From Geobacter sulfurreducens PCA (lineage in GTDB: Bacteria; Desulfobacterota; Desulfuromonadia; Geobacterales; Geobacteraceae): DNA of 32,000 nucleotides. The notes beneath the pieces are model-generated. The model was not told where the DNA came from. It did not search any database and saw only the letters and a program-made list of their open reading frames with translations. Shown piece after piece: positions 26,883-31,578 of the stretch. The stretch lies in NCBI RefSeq assembly GCF_000007985.2, contig NC_002939.5, forward strand, positions 3,420,001 to 3,452,000, read 5' to 3'. Every line of letters starts with the position of its first letter. Positions within the stretch are counted from its first letter, which is position 1. The position numbers and the translations under genes were made by a program.

Positions 26883-28955
26883 CTATCTGTCAACCTGCCG
26901 GTCAAACGTTACCACGCTGGTTTCGCTGAGCGCCGGGGGAGTTTCCTTCACCCGGTTGTCCCCGCCCGAAAAAACGAGCACCCCGTAGCGCCCGTAATGG
27001 GTGATCTTGAGGGCTGCCGCACCGGCGGCAGCCGGGGAGAGGGAATGAAGGAACGCCGTTACCCGGCCCGGCGCGTCGGGCCGGTTGGCGACCGCGAAGA
27101 GCATGTCGCCGGCTCCGGCATATGTCGTGCCGTCCACGACAAAGGTGCCGGCAGACGCTGAAACGCCGTGGGGCAGCGGCGACCGGATACCAGTCGTCCC
27201 GGGAACGCCGCAAAAAAGAATGTCGCGACCGGCCAGGGCCGCGGCATTGAGCTGGTCCTGCCGGATCAGCGGAGCCTCCGCCTGGCCGAGAGAGCGGAGA
27301 AGAAGCGCCAGAGTATCCCTGTCAGCACCGCAGCCGGGCGACGTCACGACCGTCAGGGCCATGCTCCCCTTGATCCTGTTCACCGTTGCCGGGAGTTCCT
27401 CCGGTGATAGAAGTCGAAAGGTATCCGCCTCGGGATCGAGCGTAACCCGCTCGGGCGGCCCGCTCACATCGACCGTAAAGGCAGTTCGCCCCCTCGTTGG
27501 CTCCACCAGAATGTCCCGGGACGTGCCGCCGGCGTCCACCCGCACCCGCACCCGCCCAGGAAACGCATCACCCACCTGCCGGACCACCCCGCTCACGAGC
27601 CAGCCATCCCCGCCCTGCCGCCGCTCCACATCGGTCAGGGCGAGTCGGGGACCGCCGGTCCGTTCAAGCCACGGGTTCATGAACGAAACCATGTCGCGGC
27701 CAGAGGCGCGGGAAAAGGCCAGGGCGAAATCGTCCCAGGATGCCGCCTTGAACCGGAACTCACGAAAAACCTGCCTGAGGGCGCCGAAAAAGGCATCGTC
27801 ACCAATTTCCCGGCGGACCATGTGAAACAGCATGGATCCCTTGCCGTAGCCGATGGTGCGGGAGGCCGGATCGACCCGTCCCATGAACCGCCGTAGCGGG
27901 AAATCCTCTCCTGGGGACACCAGCGAGGCATAGTCGGCCAGGAGGCGGTAGCGGTAGTCACGCCCATCCCGGGCCGACTTCCGCTCTTCCAGCAAGTAGT
28001 CCGCCAGGTAGGTGACGAGTCCCTCGGACCAGTTGCCCTTCTCGTAGGCCACCAGCACGCCGTTGCCCCACCAGCAGTGAGCAATCTCATGGGGGAGGCT
28101 CGTATGGACGATGAAGGGAAGCCGGATGACCGTGCCGCCGATGAGGGTGTAGGACGGGAAACCGTAACCGGTGGGGAAGAAGTTCTCCACCACGGCGAAT
28201 TTCTCAAAGGGATAGGGGCCGAATTTCTCCGCGTAGAACCGGAGGTAGCCGGCGGACGCCTCAAGATAGCGGTCGGCGAGCACCGCGTTTTCAGGGTAGA
28301 GGTAGGTGTAGAGAGGGATGCCGTCCACGTTCCGCTCGGCAACCACGTAGGAGCCCGCCGACAGCGACAGGGCCTCGGCGGGATGTTCCTCCTCCCAGAC
28401 CGAGGTGGTGACGCCGCCGGCCGTTTCCCTGACAGCGCGCCGACCGGCGGTCACGGCCTCGATGCCCGCGGGAGCCTCGACGGTAACGATGCGGCGGCCC
28501 GGCGGAGCCGCCGGTTCCGGATACCAGCCCGCGCCGCTGCCGAGATAAGTCCCCCGCTCGGCAACCACGGCGTTCACCCCGTAAGAGGGGTCCTCCGTCA
28601 CGACCGGCCGCTCCGGGGCCGGATCATTGAATATACAGCGGTAGGCAACCGTCACCCGTCGCTCGCCGGTGCCCGCGGACAGATTCAGCCGGAGCGTCCC
28701 CCCCTCCCTGCGGAAAGGGATGTCGCGGCCGTCCAGGCGCACGGCTTCGAGCCTGGCCGCGCCGTTGAGGGCAAGGCTGAACTCCCCGGCAGCACCGGGG
28801 GCGAGATACAGGGTGCTTTCACCGACGACGAGATGCTGCGGCGGCACGAGCCGCACGGCAATCTCCTGCCGGACGACGCGCACTTCTCCCCGTGCCGAAC
28901 AGGCGACAAGGAGCATGGCGACCAGAATGGCCGAAAGGGCGATGTAAGGTTTCAT
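26883..28955 (-). CDS. M1-family zinc metallopeptidase (aminopeptidase N-like), probable lipoprotein
   Basis: HEIAHCWWGN...WSEGLVTY (HEXXH plus a distal Glu). Lipobox LLVAC. I chose ATG 28955 (MKPYIAL...) over the TTG at 28964. No clear SD. Confidence 0.82.
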   Translation of the reverse strand: MKPYIALSAILVAMLLVACSARGEVRVVRQEIAVRLVPPQHLVVGESTLYLAPGAAGEFSLALNGAARLEAVRLDGRDIPFRREGGTLRLNLSAGTGERRVTVAYRCIFNDPAPERPVVTEDPSYGVNAVVAERGTYLGSGAGWYPEPAAPPGRRIVTVEAPAGIEAVTAGRRAVRETAGGVTTSVWEEEHPAEALSLSAGSYVVAERNVDGIPLYTYLYPENAVLADRYLEASAGYLRFYAEKFGPYPFEKFAVVENFFPTGYGFPSYTLIGGTVIRLPFIVHTSLPHEIAHCWWGNGVLVAYEKGNWSEGLVTYLADYLLEERKSARDGRDYRYRLLADYASLVSPGEDFPLRRFMGRVDPASRTIGYGKGSMLFHMVRREIGDDAFFGALRQVFREFRFKAASWDDFALAFSRASGRDMVSFMNPWLERTGGPRLALTDVERRQGGDGWLVSGVVRQVGDAFPGRVRVRVDAGGTSRDILVEPTRGRTAFTVDVSGPPERVTLDPEADTFRLLSPEELPATVNRIKGSMALTVVTSPGCGADRDTLALLLRSLGQAEAPLIRQDQLNAAALAGRDILFCGVPGTTGIRSPLPHGVSASAGTFVVDGTTYAGAGDMLFAVANRPDAPGRVTAFLHSLSPAAAGAAALKITHYGRYGVLVFSGGDNRVKETPPALSETSVVTFDRQVDR

Positions 28956-29006
28956 GGTCAACAACTATACCATCAAACCGGCCGATACCAAGGGCTGCCC
29001 CGGAAG

Positions 29007-29062: not shown

Positions 29063-29539
29063 CTACGGTCCGGCGTTCCCCTCCTGCTTCACATAGCGGT
29101 ACGTTGCCCGTTTTTCACCTGCCAGGGCAAGGATATCAGCCCGCGACGCCTTCCAGACGCCGTCCTCCCGAACGAGGCGGATGGCCCGCGTCACGTGATT
29201 GGTGCCGCCCGGTCCTCCCTCCAGGCCGAAGCTGGCCCGGACGGAGACGGAATCAGTGCCGCGCACCATCACCCGAACCTCCTGCATCTTCTCCCAGCAG
29301 CACGCCGGTCGGCGCGAGGCTCCGGCAAGGCGGCGCGCAAATGCTTCGCGACTCCCGCCCCCGGTGATGCTCGTCCGTTCGTAGAGGGCATCGTAGTTAC
29401 CGTCGCGCCAGAGATCGAGGATCGACTCCAGGGCCAGCCGTACCTCTGATTCGGCAACCGGCGTCGCCTGCCGAGCCGCGAAGGCGTGAGTTGTCGCGAG
29501 CACGGCCGTCAGAAACAGAGTCAGTCGAATGAGCGTCAT
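29063..29539 (-). CDS. secreted hypothetical protein
   Basis: Signal peptide MTLIRLTLFLTAVLATTHAFAA. GGAGGG RBS. GC3-rich codon usage. I recognise no family. Confidence 0.6.
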   Translation of the reverse strand: MTLIRLTLFLTAVLATTHAFAARQATPVAESEVRLALESILDLWRDGNYDALYERTSITGGGSREAFARRLAGASRRPACCWEKMQEVRVMVRGTDSVSVRASFGLEGGPGGTNHVTRAIRLVREDGVWKASRADILALAGEKRATYRYVKQEGNAGP

Positions 29540-29638: not shown

Positions 29639-30658
29639 TTACAGTCGCCTGTCCACGGACGCCGCCACGAGCCGCAACTTTGCCATAAGCGCGTCGAATT
29701 TCTTCGGCTTGAGCGACTGGGGCCCATCGGACGACGCACGCTCGGGATCGGGATGCACCTCGATCATGAGCCCGTCCGCGCCGGCGGCAACAGCTGCCAG
29801 GGCCATGGGTGCCACATAGTGATAGTTTCCGGTGCCGTGGGAAGGATCGGCAATGACCGGCAGATGGGTCATCTGCTTCAACACCGGAATGGCCGAGAGA
29901 TCCAGCGTGTTGCGGGTGGCGGTCTCGAAGGTGCGGATACCGCGTTCGCAGAGGATAACCGACTGATTCCCTTCACTCATGACATACTCGGCGCTCATGA
30001 GGAACTCCTGGATGGTCATGGACATGCCCCGCTTGAGGAGCACCGGGCGCCGAAGCTGCCCCACCTTCTTGAGCAGGGCAAAGTTCTGGGCATTGCGGGC
30101 TCCGATCTGGAGAATGTCGGAGTACTCGGACACCAGTTCGGCCGTCTCGGGATTGACCACCTCGGTCACGATGGGGAGACCCGTCTCCTCGCGCGCCTTG
30201 GCCAGCAGCTTGAGCCCTTCCTCTTCGAGTCCCTGGAAGGAGTAGGGAGAGGTGCGCGGCTTGAACGCTCCGCCCCGAAGCACCTGGGCGCCGGCCGCCT
30301 TTACCGCCCTGGCCGTCTCGATAATCATGGCCTCTCCCTCGACCGAACAGGGACCGGCCATGACAATGACTTCAGGGCCGCCGATGACCACGGTATCCGT
30401 AATGGCGACAACACTCGGTTCGGGCTTCACCTCCCTTGATGCCAGCTTGTACGGCTTCAGGATCGGCACCACGCTCTCCACGCCGTGCATGGATTCGACG
30501 CCCTGAAGGACCAACTTGCCCCGCTCGTCCCCCACGGCCCCGATCACGTCCCGCGTGGTGCCATGGATGACATGGGGCTTGTAGCCCAGCTCCCTGATCC
30601 GCCTGATTACCTCGTCCCGGTCTTTTTTTGCCGCTCCCGCTTTCATGACGATGATCAT
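29639..30658 (-). CDS. aroG: 3-deoxy-7-phosphoheptulonate (DAHP) synthase, type I-beta with N-terminal ACT/ferredoxin-like regulatory domain
   Basis: The catalytic core has GPCSVE...[16 protein letters not shown]...ADPSHG motifs. About 70 N-terminal residues ([26 protein letters not shown]...) resemble the Thermotoga-type regulatory domain. I chose ATG 30658 with a GGGAGGAAG RBS rather than the ORF-track start at 30688. Confidence 0.9.
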
Positions 30659-30680
30659 CCCTTCCTCCCGTGGTGTCCCG

Positions 30681-30714
30681 AAAGACAAAAGGCCGGAGGA
30701 TTTCTCCCCCGGCC
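30681..30714 (-). terminator. intrinsic terminator T2 in the DAHP-synthase leader
   Basis: Minus strand reads GGCCGGGGGA (30714-30705), GAAA loop, UCCUCCGGCC (30700-30691). This is 10 bp including one G-U pair. UUUUGUCUUU follows (30690-30681). Confidence 0.7.
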
Positions 30715-30739
30715 CAGTGGTGCTGCAGTATTGGTCTTG

Positions 30740-30780
30740 AAAACTGAAAAGCCGGGGGTGGTTTCCTGTCCACCCTCGGC
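30740..30780 (-). terminator. intrinsic terminator T1 (attenuator) in the DAHP-synthase leader
   Basis: Minus strand reads GCCGAGGGUGG (30780-30770), 8-nt loop, CCACCCCCGGC (30761-30751). This gives 10 of 11 pairs, with one A-C mismatch. UUUUCAGUUUU follows (30750-30740). Confidence 0.75.
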
Positions 30781-30810
30781 TTCCGGTTTAGTGTATGGTG
30801 TGTGCTTCCC

Positions 30811-30903
30811 CTACGACAAACCCCTACCCTGGGCAGACGGCCTAAAATAAAAGCCGTACCAAAAGTAAAAGCTCTCGTAGAAGTAGAAGCCCGAATTCAT
30901 CAT
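30811..30903 (-). CDS. aromatic-rich leader peptide (30 aa) of a putative DAHP-synthase attenuator
   Basis: ATG ATG AAT TCG GGC TTC TAC TTC TAC GAG AGC TTT TAC TTT TGG TAC GGC TTT TAT TTT AGG CCG TCT GCC CAG GGT AGG GGT TTG TCG TAG translates to MMNSGFYFYESFYFWYGFYFRPSAQGRGLS*. It is below the length cut-off of the ORF track. It lies 31 nt upstream of T1 and on the same strand as aroG. Confidence 0.8.
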   Translation of the reverse strand: MMNSGFYFYESFYFWYGFYFRPSAQGRGLS

Positions 30904-30910
30904 GAATCGT

Positions 30911-30940
30911 ATAGTTGCCGATCCGGCAGGACATTGTCAA
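30911..30940 (-). promoter_or_regulatory. candidate promoter of the leader/aroG transcript
   Basis: Minus strand reads a perfect TTGACA (30940-30935), 18 nt, then AACTAT (30916-30911). Only 7 nt separate the -10 from the leader ATG. Confidence 0.4.
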
Positions 30941-31143
30941 GCATTAATTCGTAATGGATACGCCATTGGTTCGATTTCTGCTTTATTCTTTCCAGGTGCC
31001 TCGTCGCAACGGGACATTAACGCATTTTCAACCACTTAACCACGCACAGCCGAACAAGACACTCACGACTGAGACCATGCCGAGGCAACCGGTGGTTATA
31101 GTTTAGGCACCCGTGACGGCCCGGCAGGAAGGAGCATCCAGAC

Positions 31144-31578
31144 ATGAGAACAGCTCAATCGGGCGACATCGTCTTCATTCACTACATCGGTACCCTGGAC
31201 AACGGCAGAATCTTCGACAGCACCACCGACGAGGCGCCACTGCGCTTCACCATTGGCAAAAACGAAATCTTTCCCGCCCTGGAGCGCCAAATCATCGGCA
31301 TGCGGCCGGGCGAGGCCAGGAACATCCTGATCGCCGCCGCAGACGCCTATGGTCCGCGCCGGGCGGAAAACATGCTGACCCTGGGGCGGGACTCCTTCCC
31401 CGCGGACCGTCCCATCTCGGTTGGTCAGAAACTGCGCCTTGAGTTCAACGGCAGCGCCGAGCGGGTCATGCTTGTGGTGGAGGTGACCGACGCCCATGTG
31501 GTTCTGGATGGTAATCATCCCCTGGCCGGTTGCGACCTGACCTTTGCGCTCCGGCTCGACGGAATCGAAAACGCCTGA
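31144..31578 (+). CDS. FKBP-type peptidyl-prolyl cis-trans isomerase, SlyD/FkpB-like with insert-in-flap domain
   Basis: GDIVFIHYIGTLDNGRIFDST...PLRFTIGKNEIFPALERQIIGMRPGE...LDGNHPLAG...LTFALRL. GGAAGGAG RBS is present. Confidence 0.88.
   Translation: MRTAQSGDIVFIHYIGTLDNGRIFDSTTDEAPLRFTIGKNEIFPALERQIIGMRPGEARNILIAAADAYGPRRAENMLTLGRDSFPADRPISVGQKLRLEFNGSAERVMLVVEVTDAHVVLDGNHPLAGCDLTFALRLDGIENA

Follow-up and report, generated by a model that had tools for sequence, protein, structure and literature searches.

A very probable ribosome-mediated attenuator with an aromatic leader peptide and tandem terminators upstream of the DAHP synthase gene aroG-2 of Geobacter sulfurreducens

Introduction

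We analysed a stretch of 32,000 nucleotides (nt) from the genome of Geobacter sulfurreducens PCA (NC_002939.5, positions 3,420,001 to 3,452,000), hereafter the window, in whose numbering all coordinates are given. The subject of this report is the region upstream of aroG-2 (GSU3142), a minus-strand gene for a type I-beta DAHP (3-deoxy-D-arabinoheptulosonate 7-phosphate) synthase. Read 5' to 3' on the minus strand, the locus consists of a TTGACA hexamer, an AACTAT element, a leader open reading frame (ORF) crowded with Phe, Tyr and Trp codons, two terminator hairpins (T1 and T2), the GGGAGG Shine-Dalgarno (SD) sequence of the gene and aroG-2 itself (Table 1). We consider it very likely that a ribosome-mediated leader-peptide transcription attenuator controls aroG-2.

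The product of aroG-2 is 100% identical to G. sulfurreducens AAR36533.1, which is named GSU3142/aroG-2 in the literature (PMC2700814). It is one of three DAHP synthase isoenzymes in Geobacter sulfurreducens. Our Pfam search matched DAHP_synth_1 (PF00793) and an N-terminal ferredoxin-like regulatory domain (PF18152). The first-pass annotation, made from the letters of the window, had likewise assigned a DAHP synthase with an N-terminal regulatory domain to this position. Encoding the first enzyme of aromatic amino-acid synthesis, aroG-2 is very probably the gene under attenuator control.

A "conserved nucleotide sequence 5' of aroG-2" has been catalogued as the "predicted short RNA element" GSUR082/Gmet_R0069, which several Geobacteraceae have kept 5' of the orthologous gene and which, in the authors' words, "may participate in regulation" (Aklujkar et al., 2009; PMC2700814). 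Judged by its position 5' of GSU3142, GSUR082 is probably the element of the window. That paper describes no mechanism, ORF, terminators, alternative pairings or occurrence outside Geobacteraceae, and the words "leader" and "attenuat-" are absent from it. The element is also unmentioned in the comparative studies of Rodionov (2004), Seliverstov (2005) and Naville and Gautheret (2010). Our literature searches found no prior description of the attenuator, which does not exclude earlier priority.

Results

Leader ORF and aromatic codon run

Table 1. Features of the aroG-2 locus in window coordinates.
Feature	Coordinates	Strand	Basis
-35 hexamer TTGACA of the putative leader promoter	30935..30940	-	sequence; spacing kept in orthologues
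Weak -10-like element AACTAT, 18-nt spacer	30911..30916	-	inferred from conserved spacing
Leader ORF MMNSGFYFYESFYFWYGFYFRPSAQGRGLS, 30 codons and TAG, never annotated	30811..30903	-	sequence, ORF list
Regulatory codon run, 15 codons with 6 Phe, 5 Tyr and 1 Trp	30844..30888	-	codon-window scan
1:2 hairpin, anti-antiterminator, possibly pause hairpin	30804..30890	-	minimum free energy folds
Segment 2 core GUCUGCCCAGGGU, antiterminator 5' strand	30826..30838	-	folds, covariation
Segment 3 GCCGAGGGUGGAC, antiterminator 3' strand and T1 5' arm	30768..30780	-	folds, duplex energies
T1: hairpin 30783-30748, -22.4 kcal/mol, U-rich tail UCAGUUUUC	30739..30783	-	fold, terminator scan
Segment 4 CCCCCGGCU, T1 3' arm	30750..30758	-	complementarity to segment 5
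Segment 5 GGCCGGGGG, T2 5' arm, partner of segment 4	30706..30714	-	folds, duplex energies
T2: 11-bp hairpin 30715-30690, -22.2 kcal/mol, tail UUUGUCUUUC	30680..30715	-	terminator scans
SD sequence GGGAGG of aroG-2	30664..30669	-	sequence
aroG-2 (GSU3142), type I-beta DAHP synthase	29639..30658	-	Pfam and exact protein match

The first-pass annotation had placed an ORF encoding MMNSGFYFYESFYFWYGFYFRPSAQGRGLS at 30903-30811 and its run of 12 aromatic codons in 15 at 30888-30844, and both proved exact to the base. The aromatic codons of the leader are two TTC, four TTT, four TAC, one TAT and one TGG. When all stop-free stretches of 15 codons in the six frames of the 32 kb were scanned, the leader run was the sole stretch with 12 aromatic codons. 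Moreover, the top eight stretches (9-12 aromatic codons) all lie at the leader locus, and at least seven aromatic codons occurred in just 15 of about 48,000 stretches. Because the genes of the window favour TTC and TAC (17 long ORFs; TTT:TTC = 50:194, TAT:TAC = 61:158), the five A/T-ending aromatic codons of the leader are atypical, in agreement with the earlier remark that TTT and TAT look disfavoured here. These five codons sit at nucleotides that are kept among orthologues.

Orthologous loci

Two sets of orthologous loci were collected, with lineages assigned by the names on the sequence records. A DAHP synthase scan with one genome per species yielded 80 loci at 60-86% protein identity, and a metagenome scan seeded with the enzyme of a Syntrophaceae metagenome-assembled genome yielded 72 usable loci of a second, Syntrophaceae-related clade (clade B). 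Set A below denotes 48 genome loci with a leader ORF. An aromatic mini-ORF followed by a terminator precedes the orthologue in 47 of the 80 genome loci, which belong to Geobacteraceae, Desulfuromonadales, Thermodesulfovibrio, Rokubacteria/Methylomirabilota and several Thermodesulfobacteriota/Syntrophaceae. In these loci the mini-ORF starts with ATG, has 6-12 aromatic codons in 15 and lies within about 190-290 nt 5' of the gene, and the terminator follows 17-53 nt past the mini-ORF (91-93 nt in two loci in which T1 escaped the scan). In clade B, 69 of 72 loci have the leader and T1, and 68 of them also have T2. Across the Thermodesulfovibrio and Desulfuromonadales loci L027-L033 and the clade-B loci L081-L160, the leaders lie about 130-290 nt 5' of the DAHP synthase start.

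This distribution bears on whether the ORF could instead encode a small hydrophobic protein with a function of its own, or belong to a small RNA gene that stands alone, in either case with no part in aroG-2 control. The element does have its own predicted promoter and two terminators, from which an RNA of 160-220 nt is predicted. Nevertheless, in more than 110 loci from several phyla it always stands directly 5' of, and co-oriented with, the DAHP synthase gene, and our promoter scan found no separate aroG-2 promoter. The peptide sequence is not conserved, and the 5' arm of the terminator complements the 3' end of the ORF with covariation. A stand-alone gene therefore appears highly improbable to us.

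What is conserved 5' of segment 2 is the class of codon and not the peptide, with Phe, Tyr and Trp interchanging by lineage. The leader runs read SGFYFYESFYFWYGFYF in the window, NRFYIAFSFYFWFGFYF in another locus, GFFGYYFSY in Methylomirabilota, NYWFSYYYFGG in clade B, NWWWSFFF in Thermodesulfovibrio and FFWFGFFGFF in Desulfuromonadales. These runs also speak to the sensor. Within Geobacteraceae, a near-invariant Trp codon and the motif F-x-F-W-x-G-F-x-F-R-P-S-A could be taken to mean that the signal is sensed by the nascent peptide itself, through a TnaC-like arrest on free aromatic amino acids, and not through the charging of tRNAs for hungry codons. In other families the motif does not hold, as GFFGYYFSY, NYWFSYYYFGG and NWWWSFFF illustrate, and R-P-S-A varies as pairing demands, with other frames used elsewhere. 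Furthermore, arrest on an abundant amino acid would induce a biosynthetic gene at the wrong time. Arrest by the nascent peptide is thus very unlikely, and we retain tRNA charging as the presumed signal.

The composition of the leaders differs by lineage. The Desulfuromonadales leaders L029-L033 have 7-10 Phe, 0-1 Tyr and 1-2 Trp codons; among the Thermodesulfovibrio leaders (L027 and L028), that of L028 has three consecutive Trp codons and Phe; the clade-B leaders (L081-L160) are Tyr-rich; and those of L056, L059 and L064 are without Trp. This suggests that, from one lineage to another, the isoenzyme serves different branches or pairs with different allosteric specificities. TTT is favoured over TTC (178:107) in the leaders of 48 set-A loci, even in GC-rich genomes that prefer TTC. 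The U runs of the leader pair via G-U with the G-rich 3' half of the 1:2 hairpin, and TTT codons may also sharpen the charging sensitivity of Phe decoding (wobble with tRNA-Phe GAA).

Putative promoter and leader start

In all 29 Geobacteraceae and Thermodesulfovibrio loci compared, the window included, TTGAC begins 35-39 nt (mostly 36-37) 5' of the leader ATG. The hexamer is a perfect or near-perfect TTGACA in these loci, no SD sequence accompanies it, and 5' of the ATG there is a -10-like element whose end lies 7-8 nt away. In the window, 7 nt separate AACTAT from the leader ATGATG (30903), and no SD sequence precedes the leader ATG. The -35/-10 spacing predicts that transcription begins with the A of the leader ATG or with the nucleotide directly 5' of it, so that the mRNA of the leader would probably be leaderless. 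Rokubacteria have a promoter-to-ATG spacing similar to that of Geobacteraceae. Desulfuromonadales and many clade-B loci lack such spacing and have SD-like motifs 5' of the ATG instead. Either leaderless spacing or an SD-like motif was found in every lineage examined. The Corynebacterium ilvB leader peptide is reported to be made without a ribosome-binding site (Morbach, 2000, as summarised in a citing paper).

Alternative folds of the leader RNA

The leader RNA folds at -102.8 kcal/mol, with z = -5.1 against shuffled sequences, and its minimum free energy (MFE) fold consists of three hairpins: a long 1:2 hairpin, T1 and T2. The aromatic codons make up the 5' half of the 1:2 hairpin, and its 3' half holds segment 2 and the stop codon. 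The first-pass annotation had drawn 1:2 as ACGGC pairing with GCCGU. These partners are correctly placed, but the hairpin is far larger, extending over 30890-30804. It had also paired segment 2 (CCGUCUGCCC) with the 5' arm and loop of T1 (GGGUGGACAGG), and all four motifs lie where it had put them. The T1 stem begins 27 nt past the leader stop codon and its GC core 30 nt past it. RNA terminated at T1 is predicted to be about 158-163 nt long.

Full-length folds under a ribosome mask cannot discriminate between the outcomes, and we therefore folded transcripts cut before segment 4, that is, before the 3' arm of T1, while masking a ribosome footprint codon by codon. In the truncated transcript of the window without a ribosome, segment 2 was held by 1:2 and the 2:3 pairing did not form. 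With the A site of the masked ribosome at codons 4-17, 2:3 formed at all but two positions, with 11-13 pairs joining 30838-30826 to 30780-30768. When the A site was at codon 18 or beyond, or at the stop codon, 2:3 did not form. The mutually exclusive structures that had been sketched by eye were thus recovered by folding, with 2:3 appearing under a mask at codons 4-17, and neither without a ribosome nor from codon 18 onward, as an attenuator would require.

Similar behaviour was found among the orthologues. In 45 of the 48 set-A loci, segment 2 is paired with upstream sequence (1:2) before segment 3 exists. Under the ribosome mask, 2:3 can form in nearly all 48 loci while the footprint is on the aromatic run, and in most of them it is blocked over the next 5-10 codons.

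Conservation and covariation of the pairings

The strand GUCUGCCC of segment 2 encodes P-S-A in Geobacteraceae. In Methylomirabilota and L033 its frame gives R-L-P, and in clade B and Rokubacteria V-C-P. Since it occurs in all three frames, the constraint is on the RNA. Its partner strand in T1 shifts along with it: UCUGCC faces GGCAGA, or GGUGGA via G-U pairs, UCCACC faces GGUGGA, UCUAUC faces GAUAGA, and CAUCGACCCG faces CGGGUUGAUG. On an alignment of 35 sequences, RNAalifold chose the 2:3 antiterminator as the consensus structure. On this alignment, of Geobacteraceae, Desulfuromonadales and Thermodesulfovibrio loci, 2:3 was 97.5% paired and four of its eight pairs were changed on both sides. 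Its covariation score was reached by none of 500 shuffles, and slid controls were 38-62% paired. The clade-B alignment (64 sequences) gave 90.9% pairing for 2:3 with changes on both sides at six of 15 pairs, and 88% pairing each for T1 and T2, with both-side changes at 6 of 16 and 9 of 14 pairs, respectively. The energy of the 2:3 duplex ranged from -15 to -41 kcal/mol in all 48 set-A loci, comparable with T1, and averaged -22.9 kcal/mol in clade B. The T1 stem is kept with lineage-specific sequences (CCGGGG, CCACGG, CCGCGG and CCAUGG).

Comparison with known RNA families

An Rfam cmscan of 30500-31200 at E <= 10 returned no leader family and no T-box, and 11 other loci were without a match at gathering thresholds. 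Two hits were rejected. The Brucella small RNA BSR0739 (30679-30815, minus strand; E = 0.006, 24 bits against a gathering threshold of 191) aligned only with both terminator hairpins, which we regard as chance or architecture-level resemblance and not as homology, and the Moco hit was the T2 stem. Six representative leader peptides had no NCBIfam or Pfam match at E <= 10, and four leader sequences, that of the window among them, were absent from about 15 billion predicted proteins.

These results weigh on a further alternative, in which the mini-ORF is untranslated and the RNA adopts the same folds as a ligand-, tRNA- or protein-binding switch, whether as a riboswitch, as an element of T-box type or as a target of CsrA. 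The region was first catalogued as a conserved RNA element or possible riboswitch, its core GUCUGCCC/GGGCAGAC is kept across phyla at the RNA level, and the leader of the window has no SD sequence. Moreover, aroG-2 is up about 3.6-fold by RT-qPCR in a csrA mutant (PMC11934962). GGA motifs occur in the T1 loop (ACAGGAAA, 30763-30770) and in the SD region (GGGAGGAAG, 30661-30669), a layout (hairpin loop and SD) characteristic of CsrA sites. The loop GGA is not kept among orthologues, which makes direct action of CsrA doubtful. The interchange of Phe, Tyr and Trp codons 5' of segment 2 is more variation than a ligand pocket would allow, the ATG and the stop codon are kept, and start signals were present in every lineage, as described above; the Rfam search, with the T-box models included, adds nothing in favour of a switch. 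We judge an untranslated switch very unlikely and continue with a translated leader.

A second terminator and its possible gating

T2 lies 32 nt past T1 and 21 nt before the SD sequence. Its stem is the longest of all terminator-like hits in the scans of the 32 kb, and T2 heads the hit lists. RNA terminated at T2 is predicted to be about 215-223 nt long. There is no ATG between T1 and T2 in the window sequence, and hence no second leader ORF. T2 is kept in 68 of 72 loci of clade B and, when the criteria are strict, in 24 of 48 set-A loci.

Segment 4, the 3' arm of T1, and segment 5, the 5' arm of T2, are complementary. Their duplex (4:5) has an energy of -21.9 kcal/mol in the window, equalled by 0.07% of random 14-nt windows, and with 2:3 held, 4:5 is the MFE pairing once the 5' arm of T2 emerges. 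When 2:3 was enforced in the orthologues, the MFE fold contained 4:5 (median 12 pairs) before the 3' arm of T2 had been made; this held for 24 of 24 loci in set A and for 62 of 63 in clade B. Pairing of 4:5 reaches 95% on the clade-B alignment. These observations suggest that a single leader gates both terminators by a relay in which 1:2, 3:4 and 5:6 alternate with 2:3 and 4:5, and we lean towards such a relay, if at all, by only a little.

It is tentatively possible that the attenuator is real and T2 is nevertheless ungated, acting as a constitutive partial terminator or as a stabilising or processing hairpin, with 4:5 as a by-product of a T2 copied from T1. Completed T2 is about 10 kcal/mol better than 4:5, so that 4:5 could only delay T2, although a delay suffices while the U tract is being crossed. 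The covariation of 4:5 is thin, with just two of its 11 pairs changed on both sides in clade B, and the shared T1/T2 stem cores CCGGGG and CCAUGG hardly vary inside clades. The U tract of T2 is poor in several Geobacteraceae (e.g., CUGUUUGUGG), and T2 is absent from Rokubacteria and some Desulfuromonadales (L029-L033), where it is evidently dispensable.

On the other side, an efficient, unconditional T2 lying 30-45 nt before the start codon would silence aroG-2, because there is no room for a promoter past T2. The T1 and T2 stems change jointly between lineages, the shared core being CCGGGG in Geobacteraceae, CCAUGG in clade B and CCGCGG in L062. Plain duplication would make 4:5 and the mirror pairing 3:6 equal, whereas 4:5 is stronger than 3:6 in all 24 set-A and in 56 of 63 clade-B loci. 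Cognate 4:5 pairs within clade B also beat permuted ones (-18.08 against -16.93 +/- 0.24; 0 of 5000 permutations). The relatedness of the loci inflates all of these 4:5 tests across loci.

Several loci show variations on the second terminator. In the Geomonas-type loci L002 (2757-3003) and L012 (2763-3003), T1 is degenerate and its outer GCCGG/CCGGC stem is gone; T1 has -9.9 kcal/mol in L002 and was undetected in L012, and T2 is intact in both. Their segment 4 is CCUCCCCCUUA, which still pairs with UAAGGG...GGGGGA at T2, and T2 may be the main regulated terminator in species of this type. In the clade-B locus L087, the T1 3' arm has a bulged A (CACCGUGG), which pairs with a U in the 4:5 duplex (GGCCAUGGUG). 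The bulge context is CACCAUGG in most clade-B loci, and where clade-B sequences have alignment column 149, it is nearly always paired with column 188. Because the bulged A is paired in 4:5, the 5' arm of T2 complements segment 4 better than the 5' arm of T1 itself does.

Neighbouring genes

Upstream of the leader, an FKBP-type isomerase gene (31144-31578, plus strand) is divergent from it, and T1 and T2 can therefore not be the terminators of this gene. Downstream, 99 nt past the aroG-2 stop codon, lies an ORF of 158 aa (29063-29539, minus strand) with a signal-peptide-like N-terminus and no Pfam match, which appears to be GSU3141. No terminator was found between it and aroG-2. In published RNA-seq, GSU3142 and GSU3141 are up together about 10-fold in biofilms of csrA and gsu1771 mutants. 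Because both genes rise together, aroG-2 is strongly regulated and likely co-transcribed with GSU3141, which thus probably belongs to the attenuator-controlled operon. The csrA and gsu1771 expression changes are indirect evidence and do not address the mechanism of attenuation. Further along the minus strand, an ORF of 693 aa (26883-28964) contains HEIAHCWWGN...WSEG, resembling the HExxH-(18)-E zinc-binding motif of M1-type metallopeptidases, and is preceded by a promoter-like site (28991-28964; TTGGTA-16-TATAGT with TG).

Discussion

The region upstream of aroG-2 has every defining feature of ribosome-mediated attenuators that can be tested in silico. A short, co-oriented ORF with a usable start and predicted translation precedes an amino-acid biosynthetic gene, and it carries a cluster of codons for the end-product amino acids of the pathway. 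T1 and T2 are intrinsic terminators between the leader ORF and the structural gene. A 1:2 anti-antiterminator has the regulatory codons in its 5' strand, and the antiterminator shares one strand with the terminator while its other strand can be covered by the ribosome. In silico, the locus also has the his-type arrangement of three hairpins with two alternative pairings between them. The ORF, the codon run, both terminators, the exclusive pairings, and their conservation and covariation are all observed in the sequences. From these we infer where transcription starts, that the leader is translated, that ribosome and polymerase are kinetically coupled, that termination responds to tRNA charging and that 4:5 relays the signal to T2.

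The proposed mechanism would operate as follows. Transcription would start on the A of the leader AUG or beside it, and the 30-codon leader would be translated from a leaderless mRNA. With Phe-, Tyr- and Trp-tRNAs charged, the ribosome would pass the aromatic codons and move onto segment 2 (codons R-P-S-A and following), or else leave, whereupon the large 1:2 hairpin would re-form. Segment 2 would be unavailable in both cases, T1 (3:4) would form and transcription would end after about 160 nt. Polymerases leaking past T1 would then meet T2 (5:6). If any one of the charged tRNAs were scarce, the ribosome would stall in segment 1 with its A site at about codons 4-17, and segment 2 (GUCUGCCC...) would be left open to the 5' arm of T1 as this emerges, the two pairing as 2:3 in place of T1. 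Segment 4 (CCCCCGGCU), now unpaired, could then pair with segment 5 (GGCCGGGGG) and delay T2, which is the least certain step. The polymerase would then continue into aroG-2 and, probably, on into GSU3141. The four-segment scheme of the first-pass annotation is thereby extended in three ways: the leader mRNA is probably leaderless, T2 is conserved, and the pairings suggest a 4:5 relay.

Several observations weigh against attenuation as we describe it. Full-length equilibrium folds keep T1 at every position of the ribosome mask, and the control of T1 must therefore be kinetic, like that of the classical attenuators; as completed T2 is more stable than 4:5, the same holds for both switches. The 2:3 duplex of the window (-21.2 kcal/mol) has two G-U pairs and one bulge, and when random 60-nt windows are drawn from this GC-rich DNA, 11% of them reach the same strength of pairing with segment 3. 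Because this duplex is unremarkable on its own, the case for 2:3 rests on comparative covariation; the pairing drawn by eye in the first-pass annotation was borne out by the comparison of loci and would not stand out from the window duplex by itself. In many orthologues, 2:3 forms in the truncated transcript without a ribosome, beating 1:2, and in these loci 1:2 is probably less important than the direct covering of segment 2 by a ribosome that has not stalled. At the promoter, AACTAT agrees with the consensus at three of six positions, the promoter scan called no leader promoter at this site, and leaderless initiation is read from spacing alone. The comparison of aromatic content between frames is descriptive, being partly circular since the ORF was picked by its aromatic content.

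A broader proposal combines several of these elements. It holds that a leaderless leader gates two terminators by a relay and that the loci form a single ancient RNA family under several phylum labels. This family would share the GUCUGCCC/GGGCAGAC antiterminator core, would have been inherited or transferred with type I-beta DAHP synthase genes, and would have leaders tuned by lineage to Phe only, Phe and Trp, all three residues, or mainly Tyr. We see the arguments for and against this joint proposal as evenly balanced.

Mixed aromatic leaders on DAHP synthase genes have a precedent. In Corynebacterium glutamicum, a Phe-Tyr-Phe leader (aroR) precedes the DAHP synthase gene aroF, and read-through increases under Phe limitation (Neshat et al., 2014, as covered in PMC11802643, PMC4046766 and PMC3890552). 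The two systems share a mixed aromatic leader upstream of a DAHP synthase gene. However, aroR belongs to another phylum and has three regulatory codons without Trp, against 12 of 15 codons here, and the passages available from the reviews mention no second terminator. The likeness, drawn from the papers, is one of function. The novelty that the first-pass annotation had supposed for a Phe/Tyr/Trp leader on such a gene consequently holds for this lineage, whereas aroR-aroF came earlier elsewhere.

The enterobacterial pheA (pheL), pheST and trp leaders follow the same four-segment logic, with the codons in segment 1, 2:3 as antiterminator and 3:4 as terminator. In contrast to the aroG-2 leader, each senses one amino acid, is led by an SD sequence, has a single terminator and serves genes of terminal branches instead of the common entry enzyme. 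The Rfam models Phe_leader and Trp_leader gave no match to the window element. The DAHP synthase genes of E. coli are under the control of two repressors, TyrR and TrpR.

The his operon attenuator of Salmonella and E. coli is a six-segment relay in which A:B, C:D and E:F alternate with B:C and D:E. Its topology equals 1:2, 3:4 and 5:6 against 2:3 and 4:5 at aroG-2, with the hairpins re-pairing like dominoes on stalling. In his, the last hairpin alone is a terminator, whereas here the middle hairpin (T1) and the last (T2) both have U tracts. Tandem riboswitches and T-boxes, such as the tandem THI elements in Desulfovibrio (PMC545781), also tighten control by two serial terminators. They have one sensor per terminator, whereas a single leader ORF precedes T1 and T2, with no second ORF or aptamer between them.

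The mechanism is a classical one; the example is new, widely conserved and outside all curated leader families. For G. sulfurreducens, a model electroactive bacterium, it offers a concrete mechanism for an element that has been listed without explanation since 2009. Classical ribosome-mediated attenuation would thereby reach far beyond enterobacteria and actinobacteria, into lineages labelled as several phyla. The control point would be the committed entry step of the shikimate pathway, with the leader reading the charging of all three aromatic tRNAs. The more than 110 examples gathered here make up a candidate new RNA family. If the two-terminator relay is true, it would be a simple route to less leakiness without loss of inducibility, and it would supply the engineering of Geobacter and related bacteria with a compact part that responds to aromatics.

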